Virus record (IMG/VR): IMGVR_UViG_3300031812_000004 | Location: 1 to 57,985 of that record | Source of the DNA: a virus | Taxonomy: Duplodnaviria > Caudoviricetes | Length of the DNA: 57,985 nucleotides | Reading direction: 5' to 3' (one strand) | Shown here: positions 32,089-34,880 of the stretch, one piece after another | Position numbering within the stretch: position 1 is the first letter of the stretch | Layout of the letters: each line of letters begins with the position of its first letter | Position numbers and translations under genes: made by a program | Notes under the pieces: model-generated | The model's database searches: none | What the model saw: only the letters and a program-made list of their open reading frames with translations | What the model was told of the DNA's origin: nothing

Positions 32089-32329
32089 AATTATAAATTT
32101 TAATTTTCTCTTTTTGTTGTTGTTTTTTTTAATAATAAAGTAATTGGTGTTTTTCTGAACGTAACTCAACAGGATAACACCAAACCTGCTTCAATCTGTT
32201 AATAAATTCGGCTAAACTGATAGTAATTAAACTATCAGCACAAGCCGTCCCATCCTTGAGTAACAGAGCAATGGGAATCTCTCCGTCGTTACTAACTCAA
32301 AAGAGCTTTCGCAAAATCGCAGAAAATAG

Positions 32330-32593
32330 CTAATCGAACCATTGAACGTCAACTACTGTCCAAGTCGCTGATTCGATTACTCTCCGTTCTGGTGTTGAAA
32401 CCCAGGACCATTCGTGAGTTTCTTCACCTTGTTCTACATGCACTACTTGCTCGTTGAGAAGGTAGTGCATAAGTTGGAACGGAGAGTTAGCCGTTCCTGC
32501 AGTATTCTTTCCGTAGAATTTCAACGGGTAAGAATACTTTTTTAGTTCTGCGAGCACCCTTCTTTGGGTGCGTAGATTATATTTAGTATTCAT
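32330..32593 (-). CDS. hypothetical early protein
   Basis: 87-aa ORF, first gene of the leftward block, A-tract leader. Confidence 0.65.
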   Translation of the reverse strand: MNTKYNLRTQRRVLAELKKYSYPLKFYGKNTAGTANSPFQLMHYLLNEQVVHVEQGEETHEWSWVSTPERRVIESATWTVVDVQWFD

Positions 32594-32668
32594 ATCTTAT
32601 TTATTTTATTTGTTTTTTTTTTTATTTTATTTTATTCTATTTTATTTTGTTTTTTTTTTCAGGAACGT

Positions 32669-32697
32669 AAAAAAAAGTCAGGATTTACGGACCTGAC
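32669..32697 (-). terminator. intrinsic terminator closing the structured RNA
   Basis: Minus strand GTCAGG-TCCGTAAAT-CCTGAC-TTTTTTTT. Confidence 0.75.
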
Positions 32698-33282
32698 AGT
32701 GCATCTTCCGATGCCCCCCGCCGTTTTTGCACCTGCTCACGGGCTCAAAACGGCAAACCTCTCAGTCAGTTTTGACTCCCAATACGTAGCGGGACATTAC
32801 AAACTGACAAACTACCCGCATTTCGACGTGCCTCGGGACAGCAACTTCACCTTAGCGGCTTGCGACCACAGGCAGTGTCCGGACACTGTTTATCCTGTGG
32901 TCCTCACCGATTTAGCGTGGGTACCCGAGAACTTACTCCCACGCATACCACTTGTTTCGTCTTTTGACTGCACAAGTGGCTGGACGGTTATCCCCCCTCA
33001 GTAGCGTTGTAGCTACGGGTGTTTGCGTCCAGTTCGGGCTGCTTTCCTAGTATATGGCAGCCCTATGTCTTCCATCTTGGTCTTTCGACCTCAATGGCGT
33101 TCATGACTCCGTGGTGTCTTGGTTATCACCTCCGCTGACACACTCGGTGCCCGCCCTACCTGTACCGCACATCACAGACATATAGTCTGTTCGACGCAGT
33201 CTGCTGTTACGGGTTGTTACCCCTCGGGCGGCTCACACCACGGAGCCACATAGACCTCCACGTCTCATAACCGTGGGGTCTA
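32669..33282 (-). ncRNA. putative large structured non-coding RNA (~615 nt), family not recognised
   Basis: GC-rich island with at least 13 stems, GGAA/GAAA tetraloops on minus, and a 3' hairpin followed by U8. Confidence 0.75.
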
Positions 33283-33303
33283 ATTTTTATGTTTTTTTTT
33301 CAA

Positions 33304-33319
33304 TGTTCCACGTGGAACA
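33304..33319. promoter_or_regulatory. parS: parS-type palindrome (ParB/Spo0J binding site)
   Basis: TGTTCCACGTGGAACA matches the widespread chromosomal parS consensus; extends to a 20-bp palindrome at 33302-33321, followed by an extra half-site GTGGAACA. Confidence 0.75.
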
Positions 33320-33563
33320 TTTTGTGGAACATTTACTTTATGTGTTTTTTTTTTTAACACATCGTAGTACATATATATACGTATATACCACACAAATATA
33401 TACTTGCACTAAAGTATGTCGTAGTTCGGTGAGGATTGTTAGTGTATGTGTAGCGGTGGTCGGTTTTAGTGTGTATGTTTTAAAATGTTTATAAGAACTT
33501 TAAAACGGAAATTTTCGTTTGCTATTATATAAAATAAATGTCTAACCTATAAAACCATGAGTT

Positions 33564-33824
33564 ATGAAAACAAAAGAAAAAATCCGTGTTTACGTTAAAC
33601 ACACACCAATCAAGGATGAGCAATCAGGAAAGTTTAGAATTAAAACATCCTATTTCGTGGAGTATACAGGTATGCTTAAACCTGTATATTTCAGACAAGA
33701 TGTAAGGAATGTGGGATATTGTGTGAGTTTGCCTTTAGACGTTTTTACTGAGTACTTCCAGTTTGAACCCCCAACGTTTAACAAGGGGGCTTCATCTGAA
33801 TCTGAAAATGACACGGAACAGTAA
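33564..33824 (+). CDS. hypothetical protein
   Basis: 86-aa ORF with ATG and A-rich leader; first rightward gene. Confidence 0.6.
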   Translation: MKTKEKIRVYVKHTPIKDEQSGKFRIKTSYFVEYTGMLKPVYFRQDVRNVGYCVSLPLDVFTEYFQFEPPTFNKGASSESENDTEQ

Positions 33825-34139
33825 AGTAAACTGTTTAGGTAACGTATCAATCACGATGCGTTACCTTTTTTTTTACGTTCATTCTAAAACAAACCTTACT
33901 ACAAACGAAACCAAAACCGCTTTTATATTTTTTCAAACCTTTATAAAAACTTTCATGCACTGTTTAACCTTTGCCTTATTCCCTTCCTTTTAACGGTTAT
34001 TAACAAACCTTTAAACAAACACTCAACCAACAACCAGCAAGCCAGCCAGCACAACCAACCAGCCAAAAACCAAACACAGGGGGGACACAAAAAACTTAAC
34101 ACGGCGGGGGGGAAGGGGGGGACTGACTCCCAGCCGCTC

Positions 34140-34382
34140 GTATCATAGTTTCGTATGATAGTCTTGTATCATAATCTTGTATCATAATTTTGTAAGATAG
34201 TTTTAAATCTGATTGTATAGTAGTGTAGTATTATATTATAATATCATAGTATAGTATAGTAATATAGTATCGTAGTATATTATTGTAGTGTAGTATCATA
34301 ATTTCGTATTGTGATATAGTTTTAGAATTGGTTGTATCATAGTTTTGTATCATAGTTTTAAGTTTGTTTGTGTTATAGTTTT
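34140..34382 (+). repeat. 13-bp iteron-like repeats GTATCATARTYTT (candidate replication origin)
   Basis: Five tandem units at 34140-34204; more at 34293, 34334, 34347, 34370; interspersed TAGTA pentamers. Confidence 0.75.
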
Positions 34383-34699
34383 AGAGCTGTTCGTATAATA
34401 AACAAATTATTTAACGAATTTATTAATTAATAAACAAATTGTTATAGACTTATTTTGTTATATTTTTAAGAGGTGTAGTATAAGGTATATGTTTATATTA
34501 TTATTTTCTACGTTTTATTTGGTTGAATAGTAGGAATTTGGTTATAGTTATTGTGTAGTTTATGAGGAATGTTAGGGGTGATTATTTGGGTGGGGGGGGG
34601 GGGGTGGTGTGGGTGGATATTTGGAAGGCAAGTTTGGTTAGGTTTTTGGTAGTTTGGTTTAGGTTTTTCATAGGTTATTGATTTTGTTGGTGTAAAGAT

Positions 34700-34880
34700 A
34701 GTAAAAAGTAGAAAGTTAAAAGTTGAAAGTTAAAAGTAGAAGGTATAAAAGACAAACTTGTAACTTTAAACTTTCGATTTTCAACTCACAACTTTCAACT
34801 TTCGACTTGTAACTTTTATCTTACAACTTTCAACTTGTAACTTACAACTTACAACTTTCAACTTATAACTTATAACTTAT
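34700..34880 (+). repeat. bipartite heptamer fold-back array
   Basis: AAAGTAG/AAAGTTA arm, then AACTTTC/AACTTGT/AACTTAC arm. Confidence 0.9.

Follow-up and report, generated by a model that had tools for sequence, protein, structure and literature searches.

What is encoded in the gap between two divergently oriented gene blocks of a hot-spring phage? The phage is represented by the IMG/VR virus record IMGVR_UViG_3300031812_000004 (Duplodnaviria; Caudoviricetes), of which the whole stretch of 57,985 nt was analysed (the window; estimated completeness ~48% of a genome). Genes up to position 32593 point leftward and genes from 33564 onward point rightward, and the divergent gap between them contains an element at 32669-33283 that a preliminary description, made from the sequence alone, had presented as a novel, highly structured non-coding RNA. 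The element was found to be a discrete, conserved, non-coding and highly structured module with its own terminator-like end. We consider it very probable that the element is a genuine gene for a structured RNA belonging to a new family and, with less assurance, on balance likely that it is a stand-alone minus-strand gene of ~615 nt whose RNA acts in trans.

The G+C content in 200-nt windows across 32700-33299 is 0.525-0.545, in agreement with the island of about half G+C that had been described; the background, put there at a quarter, is closer to 0.30, because the flanks lie at 0.275-0.45 and the mean over the 57,985 nt is 0.302. In A+T-rich genomes of thermophiles, a sharp G+C island marks structural RNA. 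The only long open reading frame (ORF) of the element lies on the plus strand (32699-33004, 101 aa), and no minus-strand ORF of at least 40 aa occurs between 32594 and 33649. A search of 5.8 billion clustered proteins gave no relative of the 101-aa ORF. In a homolog from sequencing run X3 the corresponding region carries scattered 1- and 2-nt indels, and every one of the six frames of the rebuilt segment is interrupted by two or more stops; the phage's own frame is open across all 79 codons there. Codon-type conservation, which had been named as the result that would speak for a protein, was thus not seen, and the statement that the element holds no credible ORF stands: the frame lacks a protein relative and is not kept open in X3. 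The element is non-coding. When the whole window was searched with cmscan against Rfam 15 (4227 models), no match reached a gathering threshold, so that the claim of novelty relative to Rfam is upheld. At E ≤ 10, a cmscan search of 32400-33500 gave five chance-level matches, none within 32669-33250; four were to miRNA models (three on AT repeats at 33356-33418 and one at 32439-32469), and the fifth, at 33251-33374, scored 12.7 bits against a gathering score of 174.8. ARAGORN found no tRNA or tmRNA gene in the 57,985 nt. Literature searches, which left supplementary candidate lists outside their scope, returned no description of this RNA; PMC10690425 reports more than ten thousand structured-RNA candidates from viruses and phages, among which this motif might occur.

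Folding energies were compared with those of 100 dinucleotide shuffles for each strand. For the minus strand the energy is -250.1 kcal/mol, compared with a shuffle mean of -206.7 (z -6.3), and for the plus strand -226.4 kcal/mol, compared with -185.5 (z -7.2); on neither strand, at 37 or 65 °C, did any of the 100 shuffles match the native energy; with 20 shuffles, z was -8.4 and -7.4 for the two strands. The expectation that the element would fold better than dinucleotide-shuffled sequence was therefore confirmed on both strands, and the structure, as modelled, is real and far beyond chance. Most of the stems that had been listed by eye have a pair probability of at least 0.94 in the minus-strand minimum-energy fold. 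Nearly the whole list was recovered there with high pair probability, with two corrections: the closing helix of the multibranch domain has 15 bp rather than 11, and the stem 32980-86/33026-32 is absent from the minimum-energy fold of the whole RNA. Both GNRA tetraloops, the final hairpin followed by U8 and the complementarity between CCCGAG and CUCGGG are present in the sequence as described.

Homologs were recovered from metagenomes. An 18-mer of the RNA matched six loci in JGI metagenome contigs, of which only L085 is a real homolog; its RNA is 100% identical and has a different 5' flank. Further contigs were taken from four of 23 listed runs (X2, X3, X15 and X17); in the other 19, only 4-7% of the sampled words occur. 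Both the near-identical DNA run (X2) and those with diverged homologs are metagenomes of hot springs and microbial mats. X2 represents this same phage, with a single difference over 623 nt, and carries the ~550-nt insertion seen in L085. The contigs of X3, X15 and X17 contain parts of the RNA at 80-95% likeness. A 445-nt contig from the RNA library X3 (depth 24.7) covers 32717-32955 and 33062-33131, and two contigs from the DNA run X17 cover 32718-32950 and 33062-33235 (569 nt, depth 22.8) and 32838-32950 and 33037-33062 (762 nt). A 336-nt contig from X15, an RNA library of a study separate from that of X3, is letter-identical over 32903-32951 and 33117-33137 and elsewhere less than 80% alike. 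The differences as displayed are incomplete (66 differences and 19 indels are undisplayed, and most of those in X17 are hidden); for the main piece of X3, all 12 gap letters and 32 of 35 substitutions are displayed. The invariant blocks common to the homologs measure 49 nt, 21 nt and ~30 nt, and the 3' half (32717-32950) is the better-conserved part. All four homolog contigs have unlike sequence in place of the domain at ~32950-33062 (in X15, as far as 33117), at near-equal length in three of them: 107 nt stand in place of 106 in X3, 110 in place of 111 and 116 in place of 86 in X17, and 166 in place of 165 (32951-33117) in X15. The family therefore combines invariant blocks and moderately diverged helices with a single swappable domain. 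The homolog contigs (336-762 nt, in four data sets) stop near the borders of the element. The flanks of the RNA have no cover in the RNA runs X3 and X15, which is uninformative on expression because in a diverged relative these flanks would fail to align; the same holds for the missing cover of 32958-33004 and 33240-33286 in X3, X15 and X17. The presence of contigs in RNA libraries of two studies is compatible with a transcript and is not proof of one.

Searches in other collections were negative. A distant blastn search of the RNA against 50,697 phage records and an nhmmer search against 80 loci around relatives of the large terminase (TerL; 2.04 Mb) gave no match, and four exact RNA motifs had no match in IMG/VR viral contigs. 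A covariance model of the core, R1 (136 nt and 27 bp, with two identical sequences as its input), scored 182.5 bits on its positive control (the phage element and L085) and matched none of the 50 related virus records searched out of the 80. The G+C islands in the loci of 18 relatives showed no mutual similarity in a screen in which ORFs were masked, a poor screen because the mask also hid the RNA itself. Several apparent leads were discarded: the 16-nt loop of the core matched 17 loci in IMG/VR, all by chance, as the hairpin flanks are missing at every one of them and nhmmer matched none; the 18-mer matched one locus (Paenibacillus) by chance among one genome per GTDB species; and TerL as a single query in viral contigs gave 42 pattern matches and no relatives.

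The homologs preserve several helices through compensatory change. Hairpin 32864-32902 has 26 of 43 positions unchanged in X3, with six letters added, and the X3 version is predicted to refold as 10+4 bp (GAAACUAUGA/UCAUAGUUUC and CGGA/UCCG) at -18.5 kcal/mol (z -5.4), which none of 1000 shuffles equalled. The helix that closes the multibranch domain carries, in the 569-nt X17 contig (depth 22.8), G>A at 33111 and at 33113 and T>C at 33115, positions that face 33241, 33239 and 33237; the loose-end letters at the three facing positions are T, T and G, giving, when aligned by hand, three both-sided compensatory pairs (G-C to A-T twice and T-A to C-G once). Three more positions of this helix could not be judged in X17, as the facing letters are hidden. 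Also aligned by hand, the GGAA hairpin of X17 has a 3-bp stem (GGA/UCC) in place of the 5-bp stem around an unchanged GGAA loop. The 3' half of X3 as a whole folds at -85.3 kcal/mol, compared with -85.7 for the phage, at 82% column identity. Two further helices in this half, A and B, show one compensated pair each in X3 (helix A, G-C to A-U at 32817/32791; helix B, A-U to G-C at 32805/32768). In a chance control, a single compensated pair arose among the 46 a-priori pairs with P ~0.10, and two such pairs arose among all 711 possible stem pairs with P 0.42. Because such pairs arise easily by chance, the pseudoknot that helices A and B would form is taken as a lead only.

In the proposed model of the minus-strand RNA, transcription would begin near 33283, the 5' end, and the U8 tract at 32669-32676 would hold the 3' end; identity to L085 is 100% from ~33285 through the terminator, and the 5' flank differs. 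The RNA would begin with a terminal hairpin, P1 (33251-33282; 6+5 bp, one bulged A, 9-nt loop, pair probability 0.97-0.98), after which a T-rich run follows on the plus-strand reading. The multibranch domain (33103-33249, pair probability 0.95-0.99 for its inner and closing helices) is closed by the 15-bp helix 33235-49/33103-17, with two G-U pairs on the minus strand and a pair probability of 0.99, and contains the inner helices 33226-31/33151-56 (0.96), 33195-200/33164-69 and 33185-90/33174-79 (0.99). Within it lies the invariant block CAGCGGAGGUGAUAACCAAGA (33117-33137), with no other letter in the X15 RNA-library contig; the block holds the 9-nt Shine-Dalgarno-like sequence GGAGGUGAU, which is partly paired (GGUG/CACC, pairing probability 0.48). 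Two of the three plus-strand ACCTCC hexamers in the 57,985 nt (GGAGGU on the minus strand) fall within the RNA. The hairpin at 33072-33097 (CCAUU..GGUC-GAAA-GACC..GAUGG, pair probability 0.99-1.00) ends in a GNRA tetraloop and has other letters in its place in one X17 contig (loose end at 33062). The variable, swappable domain (32950-33062), with unlike sequence in its place in the four homolog contigs, contains the minus-strand helix 33036-42/33057-63 (pair probability 0.99) and overlaps the 9-bp minus-strand helix 32947-55/32972-80 (0.95).

The invariant core of 49 nt (32903-32951) forms the hairpin GCGUGGG/CCCACGC (32938-44/32915-21, pair probability 0.77) with the 16-nt loop AGUAAGUUCUCGGGUA and the flanks UAUGC...GCUAAAUC. 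There are no other letters over the 49 nt in X15, and X3 has at most three undisplayed differences across the whole 32717-32955 piece. The covarying hairpin (32864-32902) has an outer stem of 9 bp, GACCACAGG/CCUGUGGUC (32864-72/32894-902, pair probability 1.00), an internal loop and an inner stem of 6 bp, CAGUGU/ACACUG (32873-78/32883-88, 0.97), and its palindromic CCGG loop (32879-82) is the only sequence hint toward homo-oligomers. The conserved segment AAGGUGAAGUUGCUGUCCCGAGGCACGUCG (32824-32853) shows no displayed difference in X3 or X17, with the X17 list incomplete, and has low local pairing in the ensemble (0.08-0.31). Its CCCGAG (32832-37) is complementary to CUCGGG in the core loop, with a duplex energy of -12.7 kcal/mol. 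Both partners of this candidate pseudoknot are invariant; the competing local hairpin (CCC and the final G) shows one consistent change. Helices A (32815-19/32789-93, GCGGG/CCCGC) and B (32801-08/32765-72, GUCAGUUU/AAACUGAC, pair probability 0.59) interleave at 32765-32819 as a candidate H-type pseudoknot. Closer to the 3' end are the hairpin GCCGUUUU/AAAACGGC with an internal branch (32720-32754; stem 32720-27/32747-54, pair probability 0.94), which has the same letters in X3 and is predicted again there, and the GCAUC-GGAA-GAUGC hairpin with its GNRA tetraloop (32701-32714, pair probability 1.00). The RNA ends as an intrinsic terminator would (32669-32697), in GUCAGG-9 nt-CCUGAC (stem 32677-82/32692-97, 0.99) directly followed by U8, that is, with the G+C-rich 3' hairpin and adjoining U tract looked for in a stand-alone RNA gene. 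A consensus terminator scan missed this end because the loop limit of the scan is 8 nt. One stem half and the loop are nearly unchanged in the loose ends of X17 and X3; at 6 bp, the stem is weak for a thermophile. The promoters around the RNA are consensus look-alikes only.

The RNA is most probably read from the minus strand. The minus-strand fold is 24 kcal/mol lower and has 18 G-U pairs, compared with nine on the plus strand; GGAA and GAAA are GNRA loops on the minus strand only, and GGAA is retained in a homolog; and U8 abuts the 3' hairpin on the minus strand. This strand is also purine-rich (A 159, G 191, C 140, U 125), and at 32854 a U-G pair (minus strand) has become C-G in X3 and in both X17 contigs. 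The shuffle test picks no strand, since both strands beat all shuffles.

The leftward block next to the RNA consists of 26 genes, whose products include a DNA polymerase, a Sak4-like annealing protein, clamp-loader-like ATPases, an HNH endonuclease, a primase/helicase, a resolvase, a RecE-like exonuclease and a sigma-like factor; the rightward genes include the large terminase and the portal. TerL is 24-26% identical to its counterparts in crAss-like phages that infect Bacteroides and related hosts, and the phage is on this evidence a distantly crAss-like one. All 117 phage records that match TerL are less than 60% identical; the closest relatives in any collection are 62-63% identical, and those in IMG/VR at most 44%. 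Only two of 43 ORFs of at least 150 aa have a Shine-Dalgarno-like tetramer upstream, and A-rich sequence precedes the starts. Such scarcity presumably fits a Bacteroidota-type host. The -7 box of Bacteroidota, TANNTTTG, is not enriched (92 matches, 99.9 expected) and was dropped.

Several elements were noted around the RNA. At its 5' border (33286-33293), L085 and X2 have ~550 nt in place of 6 nt, a strain polymorphism; the insert encodes, on the strand of the RNA, a 154-aa Cys/His-rich protein (L085:1285-1749) with no PHROG match. Between the 5' end of the RNA and the rightward genes, 33306-33334 contains a perfect 16-bp palindrome, TGTTCCACGTGGAACA, and a third GTGGAACAT half-site, which is likely an operator for a dimeric DNA-binding protein. 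A strong plus-strand terminator-like hairpin (33837-33866, 12 bp, T9 tail) directly follows the 86-aa ORF at 33564-33824, which therefore looks like a one-gene rightward unit ahead of the repeats. These repeats occupy a ~1-kb non-coding stretch (33850-34880) with ~20 copies of a 13-nt unit (GTATCATAGTTTT-like, 34127-34400), an inverted pair of arrays in which AGAAAGT (~8 times, 34696-34751) faces AACTTTC (~15 times, 34755-34880), and extended runs of G at 34080-34125 and 34587-34616. Gene orientation switches within this stretch, and the cumulative GC skew has its minimum there; by these sequence features it is a candidate replication origin or control region. Downstream of the RNA, the 87-aa ORF at 32320-32585 has one protein relative in a large protein collection (81% identical, 88 aa). 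Its product gave no usable lead in the Atlas and no hint of an RNA-binding partner. An X17 contig is ~85% alike to this region; the orphan gene travels in the same springs as the RNA.

Several points weigh against a minus-strand RNA gene that acts in trans. None of the present results bears on function. The comparative data are thin, comprising four partly seen homolog contigs that permit no full alignment or R-scape-type test, and no relative was found in the 50 related virus records, in IMG/VR (five exact motifs) or in one genome per GTDB species (one 18-mer). The compensatory pairs of helices A and B are not significant alone. On the native fold, 12 of 20 changed paired positions in X3 look broken unless helices are re-registered; eight of the 12 lie in the refolding hairpin 32864-32902 and four in low-confidence helices that have since been revised. 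Against its own shuffles the plus strand does as well as the minus strand (z -7.2 against -6.3), and it also has a terminal hairpin followed by a T-rich run (33251-33300). Contigs carry no information on the strand, ends or level of a transcript, DNA can be present in RNA libraries, and no transcript of this phage was seen.

Four other explanations were weighed, and a folded RNA acting in trans appears somewhat more probable than all of them. The closest competitor, a distinctly unlikely one in our judgement, is a cis-acting leader, in which the element would be the 5' part of the leftward early/replication transcript and carry a regulated terminator, as a riboswitch-like or processive-antitermination RNA. 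The RNA shares the orientation of the 26-gene leftward block, lies ~75 nt upstream of its first ORF and has a terminator at its end, and the recurrence of GUCAG/CUGAC in helix B and in the terminator allows an alternative pairing to be drawn. In X3, however, helix B reads GUCGGUU/AACCGAC while the terminator still reads GUCAG, and the leader loses ground because X3 thereby keeps helix B yet spoils the only drawable antiterminator pairing. A length of 615 nt with a swappable peripheral domain is also far above the sizes known for leaders, a weak promoter-like site (32662-32634, 9/12) lies between terminator and ORF, and the homolog contigs stop at the module borders instead of continuing into a conserved downstream gene. 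A replication RNA, either a structured pre-primer or a copy-control transcript of the adjoining origin in the manner of ColE1 RNA II, is less probable again. It stays alive because of the origin-like repeats and the GC-skew minimum nearby: the element heads the replication module and lies ~0.9 kb from the 1-kb non-coding stretch with its iteron-like repeats, inverted arrays and G-runs, which coincides with the cumulative GC-skew minimum and the gene-orientation switch. Transcription, however, would run away from the repeats and end at the terminator, the GNRA and invariant loops suggest a tertiary fold rather than R-loop formation, and no complementarity to the repeat region was seen, though none was searched for.

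We regard it as very improbable that the element is a catalytic or mobile RNA inserted in the control region, whether a large ribozyme or an ORF-less element resembling an intron. Its size is that of ORF-less group II introns, relatives of the phage carry small self-cleaving ribozymes, the 5' border shows an insertion polymorphism, and contigs break at the borders, with a depth of 22.8 in X17 against 3.8-7.3 for contigs that match the flanks. The higher depth would, however, be expected just as well if a conserved gene were common to several strains, none of the models for group I or group II introns, RNase P or small ribozymes gave a match at E ≤ 10, no split exons surround the element, and it is present in a single copy in the 58-kb record. 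That there is no RNA gene at all, and that the stretch is instead coding (the plus-strand 101-aa ORF) or a palindrome element acting at the DNA level, is scarcely credible. An open frame of 101 codons is present, and both strands fold alike relative to shuffles, as any set of inverted repeats would; but the ORF has no protein relative, indels of 1 and 2 nt interrupt all frames in X3, the homologs are covered by RNA-library contigs, and only one strand shows the G-U pairs, the GNRA loops and the U8 tail, all of them features at the level of RNA.

If the RNA is the product of a stand-alone gene acting in trans, it would be transcribed from the divergent control region, directly upstream of the leftward replication-gene block, would start with a protective 5' hairpin and would stop at the hairpin and U8. 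It would then fold into a compact tertiary particle, a picture that a dispensable or variable peripheral domain may fit. Contact or binding surfaces could be provided by the GNRA loops, the invariant 16-nt loop and the invariant single strands (CCCGAG and the GGAGGUGAU block). Such a particle may bind or sequester a host or phage factor, or assemble with itself, instead of controlling the downstream genes in cis. The roles suggested in the preliminary description (decoy or sponge, scaffold, or ribozyme) are still conjectural, as is early expression. A more specific proposal, which we think unlikely, is that the RNA is the founding member of a new class of tertiary-folded RNAs of more than 600 nt in thermophilic crAss-like phages and works without a dedicated protein. 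It might form an RNA-only multimeric assembly as ROOL and GOLLD do, or it might act as a decoy, with the invariant GGAGGUGAU and the 16-nt loop as its contacts to the translation apparatus of the host; in the latter case the host lineage would be one whose own genes do not use Shine-Dalgarno sites.

Other identities for the element were tried and dropped. A 'ANTRSYNATEGG*' frame can be read by eye in the variable domain, as in a tmRNA; a tRNA-like domain was not found by ARAGORN or by Rfam at E ≤ 10. A hammerhead core could be drawn by eye only. Models of group I and II introns, RNase P and small self-cleaving ribozymes gave no match at E ≤ 10, and no split gene surrounds the element. A reading of UAUGC...GCUAAA beside the core hairpin as a possible 11-nt GAAA-receptor-like motif conflicts with the 9-bp helix 32947-55/32972-80.

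To our knowledge, only a handful of bacterial and phage RNA classes above 500 nt have elaborate conserved folds, such as OLE, GOLLD, ROOL and the large ribozymes. Each of these large RNA classes opened new RNA structural biology, and a thermophilic origin favours a rigid, well-behaved RNA for structure work. The present RNA offers clear domain borders, invariant blocks that point to functional surfaces and natural variants that already support several helices, and it comes from a distantly crAss-like lineage with poorly known early biology. It also shows that, among thermophilic phages of A+T-rich composition, RNA genes can be flagged by G+C islands. Screens of GC-rich intergenic regions for ncRNAs are among the work described in PMC6429828 and PMC11109978; they share the detection principle, supply no family and are silent on function.

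Other phages with related terminases also carry non-coding RNA genes. A tmRNA (86 bits, tag ANMNKVFSLIREEVAVAA), which both ARAGORN and Rfam did detect, lies at L066:5115-5475, a RAGATH-1 hammerhead at L054:3007-3085 and a pistol ribozyme at L020:1778-1839, all in phages whose TerL is ~40% identical. The genes of these phages (tmRNA, RAGATH-1, pistol and tRNAs) resemble the present one in being non-coding RNA genes and lie a few kb upstream of terL; the present RNA, in contrast, has no tmRNA or tRNA features, and R1 finds nothing in 50 of those records. ColE1 RNA II, which lies by an origin, and the phage antitermination put RNA, which lies ahead of an operon, are likewise structured transcripts, although direction of transcription, size, terminator and tertiary-motif content fit them poorly. 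OLE resembles the present RNA in its length of ~600 nt, high degree of structure and extremophile setting. It is chromosomal in Bacillota and works with Oap proteins. Its own Rfam model does not match the present RNA, which is phage-borne and stands in a genome whose genes lack Shine-Dalgarno sites. A proposed link of OLE to ribosomal protein bS21 (RpsU) is mentioned in PMC12286853, and the invariant Shine-Dalgarno-like GGAGGUGAU is the feature that can be set beside it here.

The closest parallels are ROOL and GOLLD, which PMC12286853 describes, among other points, as phage-borne RNAs of 600-800 nt with variable linkers and unknown function that form RNA-only cages; such nanocages are presented there as the latest structural biology to come from such large RNAs. 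The same source places ROOL in phages or prophages, often near tRNA islands, and gives GOLLD a conserved 3' region, a less conserved 5' region and a variable linker. The present RNA is like both in being encoded by a phage, in its comparable length, in an elaborate multi-helix fold with pseudoknots or kissing loops (candidate ones in the present case) and in having no known protein partner, and its conserved 3' half (32717-32950) and variable domain (32950-33062) recall GOLLD, a resemblance and not homology. Membership in either family is excluded because neither covariance model matches. There are also no tRNAs in the present 58 kb, and thus no tRNA island nearby (in a record that holds ~48% of a genome), and the RNA, known here from sequence alone, comes from a hot spring and a distantly crAss-like phage. 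Large, ornate phage RNAs are a known kind, to which the present RNA adds an unrelated new class in a new setting.

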